A DNA stretch of 64,000 bases from positions 5,644 to 69,643 of the forward strand of contig JBJXGV010000010.1 of assembly GCA_046160485.1 (NCBI GenBank). The letters run 5' to 3'. Source of the stretch: a bacterium (GTDB lineage Bacteria; Orphanbacterota; Orphanbacteria; JBJXGV01). Under the pieces are notes generated by a model that was not told the origin of the DNA, ran no database searches, and saw only the letters and a list, made by a program, of their open reading frames with translations. Below, in pieces: positions 14,671-48,887 of this stretch. Position numbers and translations under genes: made by a program. Within the stretch, counting starts at the first letter, position 1; every line of letters starts with the position of its first letter.

Positions 14671-15447
14671 TTACGAACTCTCGAGCACCGTCGGGCCGCT
14701 CGGTTGCAGCGGCGCGTCGACGGGCTCGAGCGTCACGTAGAGCCGCGTCACCGGCGCGGTGTACGACTCGACCGGCACCGGCAGTTGGCTGAGCACTGCG
14801 CCCGTGGCATTGAGGCCGAGCTTTCCGCAGTAGACCGGCCGCGCGTCGACCTCGGCCCACAAGCGGTACGTCATTCCCTCGGGCGGCTCGGGCAGGCCGT
14901 GCACCGCGACCGCGGCCTTCTTCGCGTCGAGATCGATGAGGATCGTGCCGGCGGCGTTCGCGCGGCCGCCCGCGCTCGTCATCGCGAAATCGAGGACGAC
15001 GTTGGGCTGGTGAAGCACGCCGAACGCTTGATCGCGGAGCTGCATTTCGCGGCGGAGGCGCGCGTTGTCGAGAACAACGATCGCGAGCATCGCCGCAGCA
15101 GCAAGCGCGGCCGCCGGGCGCCAGAAGCGCAGCGCGCTGCGACGGATCACGCGCGCCGGCGGCGCGGGCGAACTCGAGTGCGCGGTGGCGCGCCGGGCGC
15201 TTTCGGCCGTCGCCGACAGCACACGCGCGCGCAGCCGCGCCGGCGGCGCCACAGCGACCGGACGCGCGAGCAAGTGCAGCGTCGCGCGGAAGCTCTCGGT
15301 CTCCGCGGCGAGTGCGGCATCGTTCGCCACGCGCTGCTCGAACGCCGAGACCTCCGCCTCGCTCAGCTCTCCGAGCAAGTACGCAATGATCTCGTCGATT
15401 CGATCGTCGTTCGGTTCCATCGGCTCGGTCGGCTTCATCGGCGTCAC
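14671..15447 (-). CDS. RskA-like anti-sigma factor
   Basis: 'AYLLGELS', 'VAPPARLRARVL', TM, 'GLPEPPEGMTYRLW...VTLEP...PSGP' RskA C-terminal domain. Confidence 0.85.
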   Translation of the reverse strand: MTPMKPTEPMEPNDDRIDEIIAYLLGELSEAEVSAFEQRVANDAALAAETESFRATLHLLARPVAVAPPARLRARVLSATAESARRATAHSSSPAPPARVIRRSALRFWRPAAALAAAAMLAIVVLDNARLRREMQLRDQAFGVLHQPNVVLDFAMTSAGGRANAAGTILIDLDAKKAAVAVHGLPEPPEGMTYRLWAEVDARPVYCGKLGLNATGAVLSQLPVPVESYTAPVTRLYVTLEPVDAPLQPSGPTVLESS

Positions 15448-15480
15448 GGTTTCATCGCAGTCGCGATTAGATGTGTCATG

Positions 15481-16083
15481 TCATTCCACCAGGTCGCGCA
15501 GGCGCTCGCGCAAACTCAGAAGAGCGCGCCGCGACCAACTCTTCACGGTTCCGAGCGGAACACCCGTCGAGACCGCGATCTCGGATTGGCTGAGGCCATC
15601 GTAGTACGCGAGCTCGAGCACGCGGCGCTGAGCATGCGGCAGCGCCTCCATCGCGTCGCGCACGCGCGACGCGCTTTCGTCGAGCGCGAGCTGCTCGAGC
15701 GAGCCCGTCGATTCGACCGGCTCCGGCATCTGGCGGCCGACGACCTCGAGCAGCCCATCGAGCCGCCGCCGCGATCGAAGCCTGTCGAGCGCGCGCGAGC
15801 GCGTCAGCGTCACGAGGTACGCACCGAGCGTACCCCGCGCGGGATCGAAAGCACGGCGGCGGTAGAGCGCAATGAAAACCTCCTGCGTCAGGTCCTCGGC
15901 CTCGTCCGCACTCGCCAGTATCGAACTCGCAAGGCCGAAAACCAGACTCGAGTATCGATCGTAGATCGGCGCCATCGCGCTCGGGTCTTCGGCGCCGAGA
16001 GCGCGGTACAACTCGTCATCGCCACGCCGCACGGTGTTGCCCCGCCGCACTACCGAGAACTGTTCCTGAGGCGTCGGCAGCAT
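15481..16083 (-). CDS. SigK-like ECF sigma factor
   Basis: 'EAEDLTQEVF...FDPARG', 'VLELAYYDGLSQSEIA...PLGTVKSW', upstream of RskA. Confidence 0.9.
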   Translation of the reverse strand: MLPTPQEQFSVVRRGNTVRRGDDELYRALGAEDPSAMAPIYDRYSSLVFGLASSILASADEAEDLTQEVFIALYRRRAFDPARGTLGAYLVTLTRSRALDRLRSRRRLDGLLEVVGRQMPEPVESTGSLEQLALDESASRVRDAMEALPHAQRRVLELAYYDGLSQSEIAVSTGVPLGTVKSWSRRALLSLRERLRDLVE

Positions 16084-16094
16084 CCGGGCTCAGT

Positions 16095-17060
16095 CTAGTT
16101 TCCCGCCGCGAAAGGCTTCGGCAACACGGCGAGACCGACCAACCTGAGCGTTCCGTCGCCAATCGTTCCGAGCGCGACCGCGGCCCCCGTCGCGAGGTCG
16201 ACGCGATAGAGCACGGAGCCCGTCGCCGCGAACGCACGCTCGCTCTCGCCGGGACCCGAAAGTATGTCGAAGCCGGACTCGGAATCGAAGTCGACGCCGA
16301 GCGAGCCGATCGTGCGCAGCACGCCGTCGTTCGGTGGATCTTGCAGAACGAGAACGTCGGTGCCCGCGTCGATGTTGAAGAGCTGCGTCGTCGCGGCGCC
16401 GGCGATCGAGCGCGTGTACGCGGCCGCGGCGAGGCGCGGGCGCGTTCCGGCGTTCGCGTCCTTCGGCGCGTACGTCAGCGCGCCGTCCGTCGCCGCCGCG
16501 CCGAGATCGACATGCACACGAAGGTTCTGCCCGTTCTCCGCGACGAGCCGAAGGCGATCCGCCTGCGGATTGAAATCGAAACCGGAGTGCGTGCCGCCGT
16601 CGAACGGCGCCGTGAGCGTGCTCGCGCTCTTGGCCTTGCCGGTCGCCGCGTCGATGACGTAGAGGTCGTACCCGTCGGAGAGCGCGTAGAGGCGCGCGTC
16701 CGCGGGACGCACGTCGATCCCGACGAGCGTGCCGCTCGCGCCGGTGATCGGCGTCGAACTCACGACGCCGGGTGAAGCGGCGTTGAATCTCACGAGCGTA
16801 TTGTCGTGGGTCAGCGCGACGATCTCGACGTTGTCGGCAATGCCGGATTTCTGAGCGCTCTGCGAGTGGGCAACGCGCGCCGCGGGCGGCAGCGCCGGCG
16901 CGAACGCCGCCGCGACTACCGCGAGCGGAGCGAACCAACGCGCCAGCGGCAACGCACGCGAGAACTTCGCGCGACGCCCCCGCGACACGCAGCCCCGCGA
17001 CGCGCCGCCGGCACAGTTGAGTGTTTTCACGGTTTCGATCACAAGTTCACGTCCCCTCAA
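16095..17060 (-). CDS. DUF4394 domain-containing secreted protein (start uncertain)
   Basis: 'VGIDVRPAD', 'GFDFNPQADRLRLV', 'AAAYT', 'QDPPNDGVL'. Confidence 0.85.
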   Translation of the reverse strand: MRGRELVIETVKTLNCAGGASRGCVSRGRRAKFSRALPLARWFAPLAVVAAAFAPALPPAARVAHSQSAQKSGIADNVEIVALTHDNTLVRFNAASPGVVSSTPITGASGTLVGIDVRPADARLYALSDGYDLYVIDAATGKAKSASTLTAPFDGGTHSGFDFNPQADRLRLVAENGQNLRVHVDLGAAATDGALTYAPKDANAGTRPRLAAAAYTRSIAGAATTQLFNIDAGTDVLVLQDPPNDGVLRTIGSLGVDFDSESGFDILSGPGESERAFAATGSVLYRVDLATGAAVALGTIGDGTLRLVGLAVLPKPFAAGN

Positions 17061-17066
17061 ACTCTC

Positions 17067-17093
17067 TACGAGATCAGCGGGGGGTCCGGATCG
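17067..17093 (-). promoter_or_regulatory. Candidate ECF promoter CGATCC-N17-CGTA
   Basis: Immediately upstream of the 17060 gene; matches the two other copies. Confidence 0.45.
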
Positions 17094-17106
17094 CCCGAAC
17101 CCCCCG
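17078..17106. terminator. GC hairpin between the DUF4394 paralogues (terminator or RNA stabiliser)
   Basis: CGGGGGG-TCCGG...CCGAA-CCCCCCG inverted repeat; no clear U-tract. Confidence 0.4.
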
Positions 17107-17138
17107 GGAAGTGAGGCGCGCCGATGTTGTGTTCAGAG

Positions 17139-18050
17139 TTAGCGGTAGATCCCCTTGATCGCGCCCCACGTCGTTGCCTCGGTCGCGTTCGGAGGCGGCT
17201 CGCCGAAGATGCTCATGCTCCGAATTGTCTGCCCGCCGGCGATGGCGCCGAGCAGCGTCGCCGATCCGGTCGAGATGTCGAGCGCGTAAAGACTCGAGAC
17301 GCCGGCCGCGTTGTTGAACGCCGCGTACGCGACGCCCGTCGCGCCCGAGATATCGAACGCCGCCACGTTCGAGGGATTCACGCCGAGCGCACCGACCGTA
17401 TTGAGCACGCCGTTGTTCGGCGGCGACTGCGTCGCGAGAAGATTGAACACCGTCTCGACGTCGTAGAGCGTCGTCGTCGCCGGGGGCGGATCGAACGAGT
17501 TCGTGTAAGCCGCGGCCACGCAGTACGGATCCTCGCCGAAGTTCGGATCGGCGGCCGCGTAGCGCAGCGTCGAGTCGACCGCGACGATCGTTCCGAGATC
17601 CGGATGCGCGCGAAGATTCTGATCGAGATCGCTGATGATGCGGATGCGATCGACGGTGGGATTGAAGTCCATGCCGAACTCGGCGCCGTTGAGCGGCGGC
17701 GAGAACGGACCCGCGCCGATCGCGGTCGCGACGCCCGTCACGCGATCGATTTCATAGAGGCGGCTCGAGCTGCCGAGACCGTAGAGACGGCCGACCGGCG
17801 CCTTCGGCCGGAAGTCGACCGCGAGAATGTTTTCGCCCGGCATGAGGCCAGTCACGGGAACGCTGTACGTGATGCTCCCCGGCGTCGCCGTGTCGAAAAC
17901 CATGAGCGTGTTGGTGGTCGAGACGCAGTACGCGCCCTCTTGCGCGCGCGACGACGCCGGTGACGCGAGCAGTGCGGCGACGCTGAGCAGACCGGCGGGC
18001 ACGAGACGCAGACAACGCGAACCGAGCGTTAAGCGGGAACGACTCTTCAC
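17139..18050 (-). CDS. DUF4394 domain-containing secreted protein with C-terminal 'TWGAIKGIYR' tail
   Basis: GAAGGAGG RBS before GTG 18050; signal peptide; 'VDFRP', 'GMDFNPTVDRIRI', 'AAAYTN', 'QSPPNNGVL'. Confidence 0.85.
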   Translation of the reverse strand: MKSRSRLTLGSRCLRLVPAGLLSVAALLASPASSRAQEGAYCVSTTNTLMVFDTATPGSITYSVPVTGLMPGENILAVDFRPKAPVGRLYGLGSSSRLYEIDRVTGVATAIGAGPFSPPLNGAEFGMDFNPTVDRIRIISDLDQNLRAHPDLGTIVAVDSTLRYAAADPNFGEDPYCVAAAYTNSFDPPPATTTLYDVETVFNLLATQSPPNNGVLNTVGALGVNPSNVAAFDISGATGVAYAAFNNAAGVSSLYALDISTGSATLLGAIAGGQTIRSMSIFGEPPPNATEATTWGAIKGIYR

Positions 18051-18104
18051 GGAAAAACCTCCTTCGCAGGCGCGGGGCCTGCAAGATTGTGGTTGATGCC
18101 CAAG

Positions 18105-18130
18105 TACGCTCGGCGCGGAGAATCGGATGC
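18105..18130 (-). promoter_or_regulatory. Candidate ECF promoter GCATCC-N16-CGTA
   Basis: About 55 nt upstream of GTG 18050; third copy of the motif. Confidence 0.5.
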
Positions 18131-18195
18131 GGGGGTGCGGAAGATTTCTGGGAAGCGGTGACCGCGGAAATCGCGATCTGATACGCTGACCCGAC

Positions 18196-21060
18196 ATGCA
18201 GAGTCTCACCGACTATCATGCGAAGTATTTCGCCTACGAGCTGACGCGGCGCTGCCCTCCGGACAGCGTGGAGAAGCTCGCGGCCGCGCTCGTCGACGCG
18301 CAGGTCGACCTGAATCCGCACCAGGTCGACGCGGCGCTCTTCGCGTTTCGCTCGCCGCTCTCGAAGGGCGCGCTCCTCGCCGACGAAGTCGGGCTCGGCA
18401 AAACGATCGAGGCCGGGCTCGTCCTCTCGCAGAAGTGGGCGGAGCGTAAGCGGCGCGTCCTCGTGATCACGCCCGCGAACCTGCGCAAGCAGTGGTATCA
18501 GGAACTCACCGAGAAGTTCTTCTTACCGTGCCGGATTCTCGAGACGAAGTCGTACAACGCGGCGATCAAGCAGGGCCGCTTCCGACCGTTCGAGGCGGAC
18601 GAGATCGTGATCTGCTCGTATCAGTTCGCGAAGAGCAAGGCGAGCGACGTTCATGCGATGCCGTGGGACATCGTCGTCATCGACGAAGCGCACCGTCTGC
18701 GCAATGTCTACAAACCGGCGAACGTGATCGCGAACACGCTGAAGCAGGCTCTCGCTGGACGCGACAAGCTGCTGCTGACAGCGACGCCACTCCAAAACTC
18801 GCTGCTTGAACTCTTCGGCCTCGTGAGCTTCATCGACGAACACACGTTCGGCGACCTGAAGAGCTTTCGCGAACAGTTCGCGAGCCTGAGCCAGGAGCAG
18901 GTCTTCCACACGCTCAAGGCGCGGCTGAAGCCCGTCTGCCATCGCACCCTTCGCCGTCAGGTTCTCCCGTACATCAAGTACACGCGGCGTTGGCCGATCG
19001 TGCAGGACTTCACGCCCGAAGCGAGCGAAGACCGGCTCTACAACCTCGTCTCCGAGTACTTACAGCGCGACAATCTCCAGGCGCTTCCGGCGAGCCAGCG
19101 CACGCTCATGACGCTCGTCCTGCGGAAGCTGCTGGCGTCTTCGACGTTCGCGATCGCGGGCGCGCTCACCACAATCTCCGCGCGACTGAAGGCGAAGCTT
19201 CGCAGGCAAGAACCGACGGCGGCGCTCGAAGATGAACTCAGCGCCGACTACGAGGCCCTCGACGAAACCGCCGAAGAGTGGGACGAGGATACCGTAGCCC
19301 CGCCGCTCTCCGAAGGCGACCGCGCCGCGATCGAGCGGGAGATCGCCGATCTCGATGAGTTCGCGCGCCTCGCGACATCGATCGATCACAACGCCAAAGG
19401 AAAGGCGCTCCTCACCGCGCTCGGCATCGCGTTCGCGAAAGCAGCCGAACTCGGCGCCGCGCAGAAGGCCATCATCTTCACCGAGTCGCGCCGCACTCAG
19501 AGCTACCTACTTCGCGTTCTCGCGGACAGCCCGTTCGCCGAAGGAATCGTCCTCTTCAACGGCTCCAACACCGACGATCGGTCGAAACAGATCTACGCGG
19601 CGTGGGTCGCGCGGCACGAAGGCACCGATCGCGTGACGGGATCGCGCACCGCCGATATGCGCTCCGCGATCGTCGACTACTTCCGCGAGGAGGGTCGCGT
19701 CATGATCGCGACCGAGGCCGCCGCCGAAGGGATCAACCTCCAGTTCTGCTCGCTCGTCGTGAACTACGACCTGCCGTGGAATCCACAGCGCATCGAGCAG
19801 CGCATCGGCCGTTGCCATCGCTACGGCCAGCAGCACGATGTCGTCGTCGTGAACTTCCTCAACCGGAAGAACGAGGCGGACCAGCGCGTCTTCCGCCTTC
19901 TCGCAGAGAAGTTCCAGCTCTTCGAGGGGGTCTTCGGCGCGAGCGACGAAATCCTCGGCGCCATCGAGTCCGGCGTCGATTTCGAGAAGCGCATCGCCGG
20001 GATCTACCAGCGCTGCCGCAAGCCGGTCGAGATCCAGGTCGCGTTCGACCAGCTTCAGCTCGAACTCGGGCTCGAGATCGACGAGTCGATGACGCGCACG
20101 CGCCAGCAACTCCTCGAGAACTTCGACGACGAGGTCCGCGAGAAGCTCAGAATGCGCAACGAGGATTCAAAGGCGTACTTGAATCGCTACGAGCGCCTTC
20201 TCATGCAGCTCACGCGGCACGAGTTGGAAGGTTGCGCTGAGTTCGTCGACGATTCGTCGTTCCGGCTCAAATCGCAGCCGTTCCCGGATCGCGCCGGCGA
20301 GATCGCGCTCGGCTTGTACGAGCTGCCGCGCCGCTCGGGCGAGGCGCACCTCTACCGCCTCACGCACCCACTTGCCGCGAGCGTCCTCGAACGCGCGAAG
20401 GCCCGCGATCTCCCGCCCGCCGACATTCAGTTCGCGTACGGCGAGCACGAAGGAAAGATCACGCTGCTCGAGTCCTTCATCGGCAAGAGCGGCTGGCTCA
20501 CGGTATCCTCGCTCAGCGTCGAATCGCTTGATCAAGCCGAAGACCATCTGATCATCGCTGCGGCCACGGACGACGGGCAGGTGCTCGACGATGAAGTCGC
20601 GGCGCGCTTGCTCACGTTGCCGGGGCGTGTCGGCGGCTCAGCGCCAACCGGCGTTGAGCCCGCGGCGTTGGGGACGATCCTCGAGCAACGCCGCGCCGAC
20701 ATCCAGCGCGGAGTCTCGGAGCGCAACGCCCGCTTCTTCGAAGCCGAAGCCGACAAGCTCGACGGGTGGGCCGACGATTTGAAGCTCGGCCTCGAACGCG
20801 AGATTAAGGACATCGATCGGCAGATCAAAGAAGCGCGGCGCGCGGCAACCACCGCGCTGACGCTGGAAGCAAAGCTCGCGAGCCAGAAGCAGATCAAAGC
20901 GCACGAAGCCGAACGCAATCAGAAGCGCCGCACACTATTCGACGCGCAGGACCAAATCGACGCTCAGCGCACGGAACTCATTGCAAAGATCGAAGGCAAG
21001 CTCACACAATCCGTGTCGCTCGACGCGATGTTCTCGATTCGCTGGGAACTCGCCCGCTAA
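18196..21060 (+). CDS. SNF2-family helicase/ATPase associated with a type III R-M locus
   Basis: 'LLADEVGLGKT', 'DEAH', 'LLLTATP', 'EGINLQ', 'EQRIGRCHRYGQ'; coiled-coil C-terminus. Confidence 0.92.
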   Translation: MQSLTDYHAKYFAYELTRRCPPDSVEKLAAALVDAQVDLNPHQVDAALFAFRSPLSKGALLADEVGLGKTIEAGLVLSQKWAERKRRVLVITPANLRKQWYQELTEKFFLPCRILETKSYNAAIKQGRFRPFEADEIVICSYQFAKSKASDVHAMPWDIVVIDEAHRLRNVYKPANVIANTLKQALAGRDKLLLTATPLQNSLLELFGLVSFIDEHTFGDLKSFREQFASLSQEQVFHTLKARLKPVCHRTLRRQVLPYIKYTRRWPIVQDFTPEASEDRLYNLVSEYLQRDNLQALPASQRTLMTLVLRKLLASSTFAIAGALTTISARLKAKLRRQEPTAALEDELSADYEALDETAEEWDEDTVAPPLSEGDRAAIEREIADLDEFARLATSIDHNAKGKALLTALGIAFAKAAELGAAQKAIIFTESRRTQSYLLRVLADSPFAEGIVLFNGSNTDDRSKQIYAAWVARHEGTDRVTGSRTADMRSAIVDYFREEGRVMIATEAAAEGINLQFCSLVVNYDLPWNPQRIEQRIGRCHRYGQQHDVVVVNFLNRKNEADQRVFRLLAEKFQLFEGVFGASDEILGAIESGVDFEKRIAGIYQRCRKPVEIQVAFDQLQLELGLEIDESMTRTRQQLLENFDDEVREKLRMRNEDSKAYLNRYERLLMQLTRHELEGCAEFVDDSSFRLKSQPFPDRAGEIALGLYELPRRSGEAHLYRLTHPLAASVLERAKARDLPPADIQFAYGEHEGKITLLESFIGKSGWLTVSSLSVESLDQAEDHLIIAAATDDGQVLDDEVAARLLTLPGRVGGSAPTGVEPAALGTILEQRRADIQRGVSERNARFFEAEADKLDGWADDLKLGLEREIKDIDRQIKEARRAATTALTLEAKLASQKQIKAHEAERNQKRRTLFDAQDQIDAQRTELIAKIEGKLTQSVSLDAMFSIRWELAR

Positions 21061-47571: not shown

Positions 47572-48606
47572 TTAGCGGAACATGCCCTTGATCCGACCCC
47601 AACTCTTGTTCTCGACCGCGTTGGGTTCCTCGCACGGATTCGGCGAGCACGCGACGTCGTCGCCCCGATAGATGCCGCCCTGCGCGACGCACTGCTCCTG
47701 GCCGAGCAGGATGCAGTCGTCTCCGAAGCAGCACGCTCCCGTCTCCGGCGGCGGCGCGCACGTGAAGCTCTGACAAGCGATCATCACATTCGAATCGAGC
47801 ACGTGATCGCCCGCGTCGGCGATCGCCAGCTTCATGCGATTGGTGCCAGGCTGGATCTGCGCCGTCGCATAGAAGACCTGAGTAAGTCCATCCATCTCCG
47901 TGTCGATCGTTCCGCCGGCGTCATCGAGGTCGTTGTTGCGGTAGCAATTGCAATTGAGTCCGCCGGGCGGCATATAGGGATCGCCGCAATTGACGTCGTT
48001 GATCGAGACCGGAATGCCGGGGTCGCTGCACGCGGCCGGCACGATCGCGATGTTGCTCCCGTTGAGGAAGAACCCGAACACGTCGTTGAATTCGGAATTG
48101 ACCCACTCGTTGTACTCCTCCGACGCGAAGACGTACTGGAACGAAACGACCGTCGGGTTCTGGCAGGTGAAGTCGAACTCGAGAATCGTTGCGTCGTAGG
48201 TCGTGTAGCCAGGAATCAAACTGTCGAGCTCCGCGTCGCCCGGGTACGCATTGTCGAACGACGTGTTGTCCAACAAGTTGGGCCCGACGACCGTGACGAT
48301 GTTCCCGCTGCTCAGGATGAGTCCTTGATCGAAGCCGATGATGCCCGCCGCACCCATGAAGAGGCCGGCTGCGCCAGGCGCAGCCGTGAGGACCGCGTTG
48401 GAAATCTCCACGTCGGGACCGATGAGACATTGGAGAAGTCCGTTGAGGTCCGTCTCCTGAACTTGGATGCCGGTCATCGCGTCGTGCGGAACGTAGTTGT
48501 TGCGCTCGGCGCCGAGCTGGACGCGCTCGACCGCCGGCGCGAGTGTGGCGGCGGCAAGCATGAGGAAAACGCCTGTCGCGATACGAAGTCCTTTCGCGAT
48601 GGTCAT
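47572..48606 (-). CDS. Choice-of-anchor L domain secreted protein with GACC Cys motif and 'SWGRIKGMFR' tail
   Basis: AGGAGA RBS; 'LEFDF...FQYVFASEEY...FNDVFGFF', 'KLAIADAGD...DS'; 'GACCFGDDC...C...GG...C..NPC'. Confidence 0.8.
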   Translation of the reverse strand: MTIAKGLRIATGVFLMLAAATLAPAVERVQLGAERNNYVPHDAMTGIQVQETDLNGLLQCLIGPDVEISNAVLTAAPGAAGLFMGAAGIIGFDQGLILSSGNIVTVVGPNLLDNTSFDNAYPGDAELDSLIPGYTTYDATILEFDFTCQNPTVVSFQYVFASEEYNEWVNSEFNDVFGFFLNGSNIAIVPAACSDPGIPVSINDVNCGDPYMPPGGLNCNCYRNNDLDDAGGTIDTEMDGLTQVFYATAQIQPGTNRMKLAIADAGDHVLDSNVMIACQSFTCAPPPETGACCFGDDCILLGQEQCVAQGGIYRGDDVACSPNPCEEPNAVENKSWGRIKGMFR

Positions 48607-48887
48607 GTCGAATCTCCTGGGCTCTCGCCGGCGGGTCGTGATGGAGCGTGGCGGGCCGGGCGAAGAGTTCCCGTTCATGTGACGGGCGCACGGATCGAAA
48701 AACCGCCGAGCCGTTCGGCTCCGAAAGCGAGTCAGCGCAAGCCCGGGTGCTGATGTTTCGGTTTGTGTGCGCCGTTGGGAGGGACTCGAAGACTACTCCG
48801 CGTGGGTCGCATGCGCCACTCCCGCGATGGCCTGCGACATCATGTCGCGACGGGCGCCGCGACGCGGCCGCCGGGGACCGACGGCCA

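Follow-up and report, generated by a model that had tools for sequence, protein, structure and literature searches.

Why should two unrelated exported proteins, encoded in one stretch of bacterial DNA, end in the same short peptide? The window, meaning the whole stretch of 64,000 nucleotides that was analysed (contig JBJXGV010000010.1, assembly GCA_046160485.1), encodes a DUF4394 protein and a choice-of-anchor L protein that both end ...PNA[TV]E..[ST]WG.IKG[IM][YF]R-stop. C-terminal sorting signals determine bacterial surface display, and each one described so far (among them LPXTG, PEP-CTERM and the C-terminal domain, or CTD, of T9SS, the secretion system of type IX) opened a pathway and improved annotation. 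An earlier note on this DNA had proposed the shared ending as a modular sorting signal on secreted proteins. Direct comparison confirms the shared ending and its modularity, as 10 of 17 residues are identical at an equal distance to the stop codon, both proteins have signal-peptide-like N-termini, and the tail is carried by unrelated exported proteins and is missing from the DUF4394 paralogue encoded at 16095..17060. The tag is real and widespread. The source genome (G000) was assembled to 4.67 Mb in 75 contigs, with 66% G+C and a completeness of 99.4%, and the bacterium, which is uncultured, is called Eisenbacteria-like here because the nearest homologues with a source name are from ‘Candidatus Eisenbacteria’.

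A short, strictly terminal tail

The core of the tail, written as WG.[ILVM]K..[YFW], was searched in 40,772 six-frame stop-to-stop segments of at least 60 amino acids from G000. The search yielded 61 matches, a genome-wide count that agrees with the terminal tag the earlier note had envisaged: 59 lie within five residues of the stop codon (52 exactly one residue from it, seven at two to five residues) and two are internal. Computed from residue frequencies, the chance expectation is 0.46 matches anywhere and 0.013 near the C-terminus, compared with the 59 observed there. One of the two internal copies stands where read-through has joined two NTF2-like lipoprotein units, both complete, into one ORF (C65:73646-74908, L047); it is the tail of the first unit and runs directly into the second.

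The logo of the 52 canonical tails reads N-A-[TV]-E-x-x-[ST]-W-G-x-[IVL]-K-[GAS]-[LIM]-[YF]-[RK], and the tail consensus is [TV]-E-x-x-[ST]-W-G-x-[IVL]-K-x-[LIM]-[YF]-[RK], followed by the stop codon or by up to five more residues. Every canonical tail has the tryptophan, the glycine, the lysine (at position -5), [ST] at -10, [IVL] at -6 and [YF] at -2; the last residue is [RK] in 51 of the 52, and glutamate stands at -13 in 41. The ending varies in Krumholzibacteriota-type genomes (LY-stop, LYR, LYKE, MYRE, MYE) with W-G-x-[IV]-K kept, and in other phyla the residues after the aromatic position range from none to three. Three proteins (P0299, P0302 and P0367) have two to four copies in tandem, about 10 residues apart, each with its own [TV]-E-x-x-[ST] part, and most multi-tail matches belong to the NTF2-like lipoprotein family described below. 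A further NTF2-like lipoprotein from another source (P0357) has an extra tail motif right after its lipoprotein signal peptide in addition to its C-terminal copy.

The tail is thus a portable C-terminal address tag of approximately 17-20 residues, strictly terminal, and it is without a name in any curated library. As had been supposed, a transmembrane helix is lacking and the length falls far short of that of a T9SS CTD. The check for an existing curated model found none that covers the tail: neither Pfam nor NCBIfam has a model that matches it, including in a scan of just the 52 tail sequences at E<=10. Full-text literature searches for spellings of the motif brought up two unrelated papers only, and those on the T9SS and CTDs of Eisenbacteria, PorU2/PorV2, sorting signals of candidate phyla, and IPTL-CTERM with choice-of-anchor proteins gave no description of the tail at the level of listings and abstracts.

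Carrier proteins and what the tail replaces

The carriers were compared with other open reading frames (ORFs) of the same genome by one uniform heuristic for signal-peptide-like N-termini, applied alike to tailed, CTD-bearing and background ORFs. Such an N-terminus was found in 52 of 59 tailed ORFs and 198 of 241 T9SS-CTD ORFs, compared with 813 of 3056 background ORFs (27%), so that the enrichment for export anticipated in the earlier note was recovered. Fourteen Pfam families match tailed ORFs, each in only one or two of them, and therefore at most 15 of the 59 have any Pfam family. The carrier domains are unrelated to one another (DUF4394, ice-binding-like, LTD, CHRD, cupredoxin, NosD-type beta-helix, and choice-of-anchor L and V), and NCBIfam models on tailed proteins include choice-of-anchor L and V, an ice-binding protein, plastocyanin, a NosD-like family and a MYXO-CTERM-anchored family. 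Judged from their sequences, the carriers are exported and mutually unrelated proteins. Eight tailed proteins are lipoproteins, with acidic residues following the lipobox cysteine; lipobox frequency was set aside as uninformative for distinguishing tailed from CTD proteins (6/59 versus 13/241). Seven tailed proteins open, directly after the signal peptide, with an Asp-rich segment I-W-T-D-x-N-G-D-G-L-P-D, which is looser in two of them (Table 1).

The tail also exchanges with known sorting signals on homologous passengers. Among the 120 best choice-of-anchor L homologues, 56 have a canonical tail, 10 a variant tail, 36 a T9SS-type CTD, 8 an IPTL-type signal and 10 another or partial ending. 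In G000, 16 of the 59 tailed proteins have a CTD-bearing paralogue, and contig C5 has a tandem pair whose products share 68% identity throughout the passenger; beyond it, one reaches the tail after three residues, and its neighbour goes on to a linker with a CTD behind it. These swaps on homologous passengers place the tail in the slot of known surface-sorting signals, which it replaces.

Distribution across genomes

The tail profile gave 16-46 matches in each of the nine other genomes of the same GTDB class and none in any of the 31 further genomes of the initial sample. A pattern scan at the DNA level, with each species represented by a single genome, returned at least 118 loci. Among the 80 matches listed, 19 are labelled Eisenbacteria/Eiseniibacteriota, five Gemmatimonadota, four Latescibacterota, three Krumholzibacteria-type, two Acidobacteriota and one each Zixiibacteriota, Effluviviaceae, Desulfobacterales and Sulfurimonas, with 43 unlabelled. 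One genome labelled ‘Gemmatimonadota’ falls in a small GTDB phylum with the tail in 12/12 genomes, and 59 of 81 genomes of the Krumholzibacteriota-type phylum have at least one match (E<=1e-5). A profile search of 1.84 billion cluster representatives gave 247 at E<=0.001; in the best 150 of these the motif ends within five residues of the C-terminus in 149 and exactly one residue from it in 137. The earlier note's mention of similar endings in FCB (Fibrobacterota-Chlorobiota-Bacteroidota) candidate phyla agrees with these pattern and profile scans, where the tail is widespread, and its mention of Poribacteria does not hold for the five genomes searched (four labelled Poribacteria), none of which matched at E<=1e-4.

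In a sample of 401 genomes, the tail was called at E<=1e-6 in 21 genomes from 8 GTDB families, and SprA, the T9SS translocon, was called by TIGR04189 at E<=1e-20. SprA was present in 21/21 tail-bearing genomes and in 98 of the 380 tail-less ones; the tail is thus confined to SprA genomes in this sample and absent from 98 of the 119 that are SprA-positive. The profiling against candidate transporters and peptidases that the earlier note had in view also found C25 peptidases in 44/44 genomes tested and sortase in 5/44. The tail is nested within T9SS-bearing lineages, and since 98 SprA-positive genomes are without it, the link may reflect shared ancestry only.

Predicted shape of the tail and the NTF2-like lipoproteins

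Two AlphaFold2 (AF2) models show the tail in different settings. In the choice-of-anchor L protein (46-row alignment), the tail follows a disordered linker and is left free, with mean predicted local distance difference test (pLDDT) values of 37-39 per 10-residue block, pLDDT below 50 over residues 324-344, and a DSSP helix at 336-343. In the 221-amino-acid lipoprotein L049 from a tandem array on contig C65 (15-row alignment), the linker at residues 193-200 is below pLDDT 50 and the tail block at 211-220 reaches pLDDT 93; DSSP assigns residues 207-210 to a strand and 213-219 to a helix, and from this the tail is predicted to be packed on the protein's own domain. Foldseek against the PDB identified this domain as NTF2-like, with 26 matches at E<=0.001 (e.g. 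3rob, 3gwr and 3soy); because of this fold, a type V pilin identity for the C65 lipoproteins was dropped.

The earlier note had pictured a short amphipathic-helix signal, and this stands in part. A helix over WGxIKGx[FY] is predicted in both models. Over the last 10 residues, the hydrophobic moment exceeds that of shuffled tails by no more than a modest margin (0.47 as helix and 0.53 as strand versus 0.37 and 0.36, with a standard deviation of 0.17-0.19), and the conserved upstream part is predicted as a beta-strand in one family, which suggests a signal that is more than an amphipathic helix.

Of the 10 ORFs of the NTF2-like lipoprotein family in G000, eight are tailed, one (C45:17730-18359) stops where its domain ends and one has a tail that has decayed. 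Adjoining the tail-less gene is a 216-amino-acid lipoprotein gene (C45:18504-19154, minus strand) with a decayed tail-like end, K-S-W-G-E-L-R-G-R-T-R-S, which comes after a 690-amino-acid unannotated ORF. As the family profile includes the tail columns, domain-length matches alone were counted in other genomes, alongside per-genome best E-values. Such matches occur in 20/20 other tail-bearing genomes (7 GTDB families) versus 18 of 31 tail-less SprA-positive genomes, with a hypergeometric P of 4.3e-4, uncorrected for relatedness.

A proposed docking peptide for the outer membrane

Our preferred reading, to which we give a probability of roughly 45%, is that the tail is an uncleaved, non-covalent docking peptide that fixes exported proteins at the outer membrane, with the NTF2-like lipoproteins as the best receptor candidate. 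A flexible linker would present the [TV]-E part as a short strand, [ST]-W-G as a turn and W-G-x-I-K-x-L-Y as a helix of two turns, and this strand-turn-helix would bind a cell-envelope receptor non-covalently, thereby fixing the protein at the outer membrane. The candidate receptors, small NTF2-like lipoproteins of the outer membrane, may hold their own tail in cis in the cone of the fold and the tails of other carriers in trans. Tandem tails and variable endings are what one would expect of a motif that is bound, more than of one that is cut at a single site or recognised strictly by its free carboxylate. We infer docking rather than cutting, as well as the identity of the receptor, from this combined pattern.

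Several points weigh against this reading. The NTF2-like lipoproteins are mostly tailed themselves, and because of this their co-occurrence with tail-bearing genomes is partly circular; as the family is also in 18 of the 31 tail-less genomes, it does not by itself discriminate. Docking in cis comes from a single AF2 model on a 15-row alignment, read from pLDDT and DSSP, and is accordingly a prediction. A receptor facing the periplasm would fit poorly with passengers that are usually extracellular (LTD, ice-binding-like, choice-of-anchor), and one facing outward would leave the crossing of the outer membrane by non-lipoprotein cargo unexplained. The invariant W, G and K would also be compatible with the substrate of an enzyme. 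Finally, ORF clustering around 38 G000 regions and 118 foreign loci (156 regions), followed by 20 loci from genomes with few tails, found no conserved non-tailed neighbour as a reader in the 156 regions beyond recurring common groups, and the tailed genes are dispersed.

A bolder version, which we consider unlikely, joins tail and NTF2-like lipoproteins into a hitherto undescribed docking system with two parts, in which a portable strand-turn-helix peptide plugs into the cone of a receptor anchored in the outer membrane, in parallel to the T9SS. If so, adding the tail to any exported protein would fix that protein at the outer membrane, self-tailed lipoproteins could chain head to tail, and the system would span several uncultured phyla.

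Alternative explanations

Among the alternatives, the one that survives best, although still quite improbable in our judgement, is that type IX machinery reads the tail (through a PorV-family shuttle, a PorU-family C25 peptidase or SprA) as a minimal alternative to the CTD of approximately 90 residues. The presence of SprA and C25 in every tail-bearing genome tested is consistent with this, as is the full T9SS of G000, which comprises SprA, a porU-porV operon, a second PorU-like paralogue, about 10 PorV-like paralogues and 241 CTD proteins. On contig C32, one tailed gene, a PorV-like gene and CTD genes make up a run that resembles an operon, and tail and CTD interchange on the same passengers. 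According to PMC10994853, the type A CTD has an almost invariant, functionally important lysine near its C-terminus that contacts PorV, and the invariant tail lysine at -5 may be likened to it, as a resemblance. The same paper states that the translocon recognises the folded seven-strand CTD by its size and shape, which argues against a 17-20-residue substitute. No likeness to the CTDs was detected either, as a profile of the 241 G000 CTDs matched 0/59 tail ends even at E<=1000, which rejects the tail as a member of the type A CTD family, and hhalign of the tail against the T9SS CTD profile gave P=0.22. The SprA-positive genomes without the tail and the possibility of shared ancestry count against this explanation as well, and tandem tails and tailed lipoproteins are unlike a translocation signal.

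No T9SS-specific feature tested (C25, or an outer-membrane protein of 1201 amino acids encoded in the porU operon) tells genomes with the tail from those without it. C25 peptidases number 1-19 copies per genome, independent of the tail count: one tail-bearing genome (G042) has 23 tail matches and a single C25, and tail-less genomes have up to 19. The 1201-amino-acid protein was rejected as a reader, being found in 42/44 genomes, tail-less ones included. It shows a faint likeness to SprA, and its operon (C27:12119-27190, L191) also encodes an M6-like inactive metalloprotease with a CTD and two small unassigned proteins. The second PorU-like C25 peptidase, which has its own CTD, lies outside any T9SS gene cluster (C21:11712-16262; L190:2313-6860). 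It too was rejected as a reader, with C25 multi-copy everywhere and one tail-bearing genome single-copy, and an extra PorU paralogue is not required for reading the tail; its nearest relatives by pattern scan are in Poribacteria-labelled genomes without tails. Both G000 C25 proteins score far under the PorU2 cut-off of NCBIfam (release 20), the C21 paralogue also falls below the PorU cut-off, and the porV product of the porU operon, the only PorV-family protein scanned, is far below the PorV2 cut-off in the same release. The literature texts searched contained no paper on the cargo signal of PorU2/PorV2. The 241 ORFs that end in a FlgD_ig/T9SS type A CTD are a very large cargo set for a 4.7-Mb genome.

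A tail with no protein reader at all, acting as an in-plane amphipathic anchor on a membrane leaflet or on lipopolysaccharide, seems to us somewhat less probable still. The C-terminal helices of PBP5/6 and the membrane-targeting sequence of MinD act in this manner. The predicted helix in both models would suit such an anchor, as would the placement, by our geometric reading of the logo, of W, [IVL], [YF], K and R on one side of the helical wheel with the three variable positions neighbouring each other on the opposite side (approximately 0.11 by chance); tandem copies could add avidity, and the neighbourhood analysis revealed no reader. The helix, however, is only about nine residues long, its hydrophobic moment is less than one standard deviation from that of shuffled tails, and the L049 model would pack the tail on a protein domain. 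Conservation of W-G and K across phyla and hundreds of families, together with [TV]-E-x-x-[ST], exceeds what membrane affinity needs.

We consider it very unlikely that the tail goes back to a tripartite sorting signal of the IPTL-CTERM/PEP-CTERM type whose membrane helix was lost, and that a sorting enzyme cleaves it near N-A-[TV]-E. This idea draws on the eight choice-of-anchor L homologues (of 120) that have ...IPTL[ST]EWG[ILM]II, a transmembrane helix and RRRR at the position of the tail, and on an hhalign alignment that sets the tail on an IPTL-type signal over 18 columns anchored on W-G-x-I (P=0.0086). The probability of that alignment is only 4.7%, however, and TIGR04174 at E<=10 gave two weak matches elsewhere in G000 and none on a tail, which rejects the tail as IPTL-CTERM. 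The tail has neither a transmembrane helix nor an arginine cluster, G000 has no exosortase, sortase was found in 5/44 genomes and in 0/7 same-class relatives, and tandem tails make a single cut site unlikely.

Lastly, the view that the tail is no signal, and either a structural end-piece that paralogues share by descent or a motif that recurs by chance, is close to refuted: the predicted packing in NTF2-like lipoproteins would suit an end-piece, but the tail occurs on unrelated folds, is modelled as free, with low confidence, in the choice-of-anchor L protein, begins three residues past a passenger whose tandem paralogue has a CTD, and is observed 59 times against an expectation of 0.013.

Genomic context of the tailed genes

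The features of the two window proteins, together with the Asp-rich family, are collected in Table 1. The ORF of the tailed DUF4394 protein is longer (17139..18209, minus strand), with the signal-peptide-bearing start at 18050 and a hydrophobic N-terminus, and the tail is also at the end of three close homologues of this protein (65-67% identity). Next after the DUF4394 pair, in the same orientation, come genes for an extracytoplasmic function (ECF) sigma factor and an RskA-type anti-sigma factor (window 14671-18050, minus strand). These neighbours suggest that the DUF4394 pair, one tailed and one not, is part of a cell-envelope signalling unit.

Table 1. Positions of the tails, their carriers and associated modules (window coordinates unless a G000 contig is named)
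Feature	Position	Strand	Evidence
17-codon tail PNATEATTWGAIKGIYR of the DUF4394 protein	17142..17192	-	Translation; profile A1 match 1.0e-10 (G000:C10:22785-22844); stop codon 17139-17141
Tailed DUF4394 protein, 303 aa, signal-peptide-like N-terminal segment	17139..18050	-	Pfam PF14339 8.7e-74, residues 101-332 of the longer ORF
DUF4394 paralogue without tail, adjoining the tailed one	16095..17060	-	PF14339 7.8e-78; ends ...LPKPFAAGN
17-codon tail PNAVENKSWGRIKGMFR of the choice-of-anchor L protein	47575..47625	-	Translation; profile A1 match 9.3e-11; stop codon 47572-47574
Tailed choice-of-anchor L protein, 344 aa, signal-peptide-like N-terminus	47572..48606	-	NF038133 8.9e-68
Cys-rich spacer module, ~40 residues (GACC...C...C...C..PNPC), between passenger and tail	47626..47745	-	Invariant Cys columns in alignment A3
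Asp-rich-segment tailed proteins	G000 C12:29412, C15:90907, C15:92892, C21:4985, C21:49280, C36:199092, C73:98409		Shared N-terminal consensus

The ORF of the choice-of-anchor L protein spans 47572..48678 on the minus strand, with the start at 48606, and the gene is flanked by an S49 peptidase gene and, on the opposite strand, by a gene for a small outer-membrane barrel. The Cys-rich spacer of this protein (residues 281-320) is modelled by AF2 with 10-residue block mean pLDDT values of 75-90. The module (GACC..C.......C...GG...G.G..C....C) serves as a spacer before either the tail or a T9SS CTD, and it is repeated six times ahead of the CTD in a 603-amino-acid paralogue on G000 contig C9; Pfam reported no family for it.

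Across the clustered regions, the recurring neighbours of tailed genes are T9SS-CTD proteins, two-component systems (kinases and regulators), ABC ATPases and NPP-like/TPR lipoproteins. These lipoproteins, which resemble NPP phosphodiesterases, have 18 paralogues in G000, with a T-x-P-S-H nucleophile motif and no formylglycine motif. They were considered and rejected as a reader: five lie within 4 kb of tailed genes, and the three closest (within 800 bp) flank one passenger family (IWTDxNGDGLPD).

Significance

The tag is carried by approximately 1 in 70 genes of G000 and by hundreds of protein families in Eisenbacteria, Krumholzibacteriota, Latescibacterota and allied uncultured phyla. What sets it apart is that it does not span a membrane and is no folded domain either. 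With a model of the tail, many entries now called ‘hypothetical proteins’ would at once become recognisable as envelope proteins. New here are the tandem tails and the lead to the NTF2-like lipoproteins. We hypothesise docking as the mechanism, with these lipoproteins as the receptor, and such a candidate opens the reading of the tag to a bench experiment that needs one small protein and a peptide.

Comparison with known sorting systems

The closest parallel is the T9SS type A CTD (TIGR04183 / PF18962 / PF13860). Like it, the tail is modular, C-terminal and borne by Sec-exported carriers, in the same genomes and on homologous passengers, and in both a near-invariant lysine stands close to the end, with hydrophobic residues behind it and a last residue that is basic as a rule (for the lysine of the CTD, PMC10994853). 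The two differ in that the CTD is a folded seven-strand domain of approximately 90 residues (approximately 70-100 in the family models), whereas the tail has 17-20 residues, may be tandemly duplicated and occurs on lipoproteins.

IPTL-CTERM (TIGR04174) is likewise a short C-terminal motif of surface families such as choice-of-anchor L and shares W-G-x-[IL] with the tail; unlike it and other tripartite signals, the tail has no transmembrane helix and no basic cluster. GlyGly-CTERM/rhombosortase and MYXO-CTERM signals likewise combine a signature motif with a transmembrane helix and a dedicated enzyme, rhomboid-type or other; the tail shows no such helix. The single rhomboid gene of G000 is an ordinary one and uninformative, as the same Pfam model matches 14/14 control genomes. 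PEP-CTERM with exosortase was rejected on the absence of the helix and on zero matches to Exosortase_EpsH (PF09721) in G000 at E<=0.01. LPXTG with sortase was rejected because the tail has neither the motif nor a transmembrane segment and PF04203 is in 5/44 genomes, with none in the seven same-class relatives that have 16-46 tails. G000, a diderm with a T9SS, does have one classical sortase-domain gene (C2:276868-277227).

Signals that act at the outer membrane or the peptidoglycan were set aside as well. The signal for the beta-barrel assembly machinery (BAM) is an aromatic last residue that ends an alternating hydrophobic strand; the last residue is R or K in nearly all canonical tails, and the carriers are soluble-domain proteins. 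Covalent attachment to peptidoglycan of the Lpp type uses a C-terminal lysine, which is terminal in only 3 of the 52 tails, and tails from other phyla end in Y, YE or YRE.

The amphipathic anchors of PBP5/6 and MinD share with the tail a short predicted terminal helix in which aromatic and aliphatic residues stand beside lysine or arginine, and differ from it in that the tail is conserved residue by residue across phyla, where such anchors would be expected to conserve amphipathicity rather than sequence, and has a strand-like conserved part upstream. As a functional analogy only, PTS1-PEX5 and dockerin-cohesin have no sequence relation to the tail, which belongs to the bacterial envelope and has a receptor that is as yet a candidate; in these systems, as in the one proposed here, a short terminal element is shared by many unrelated proteins and is probably bound uncut.

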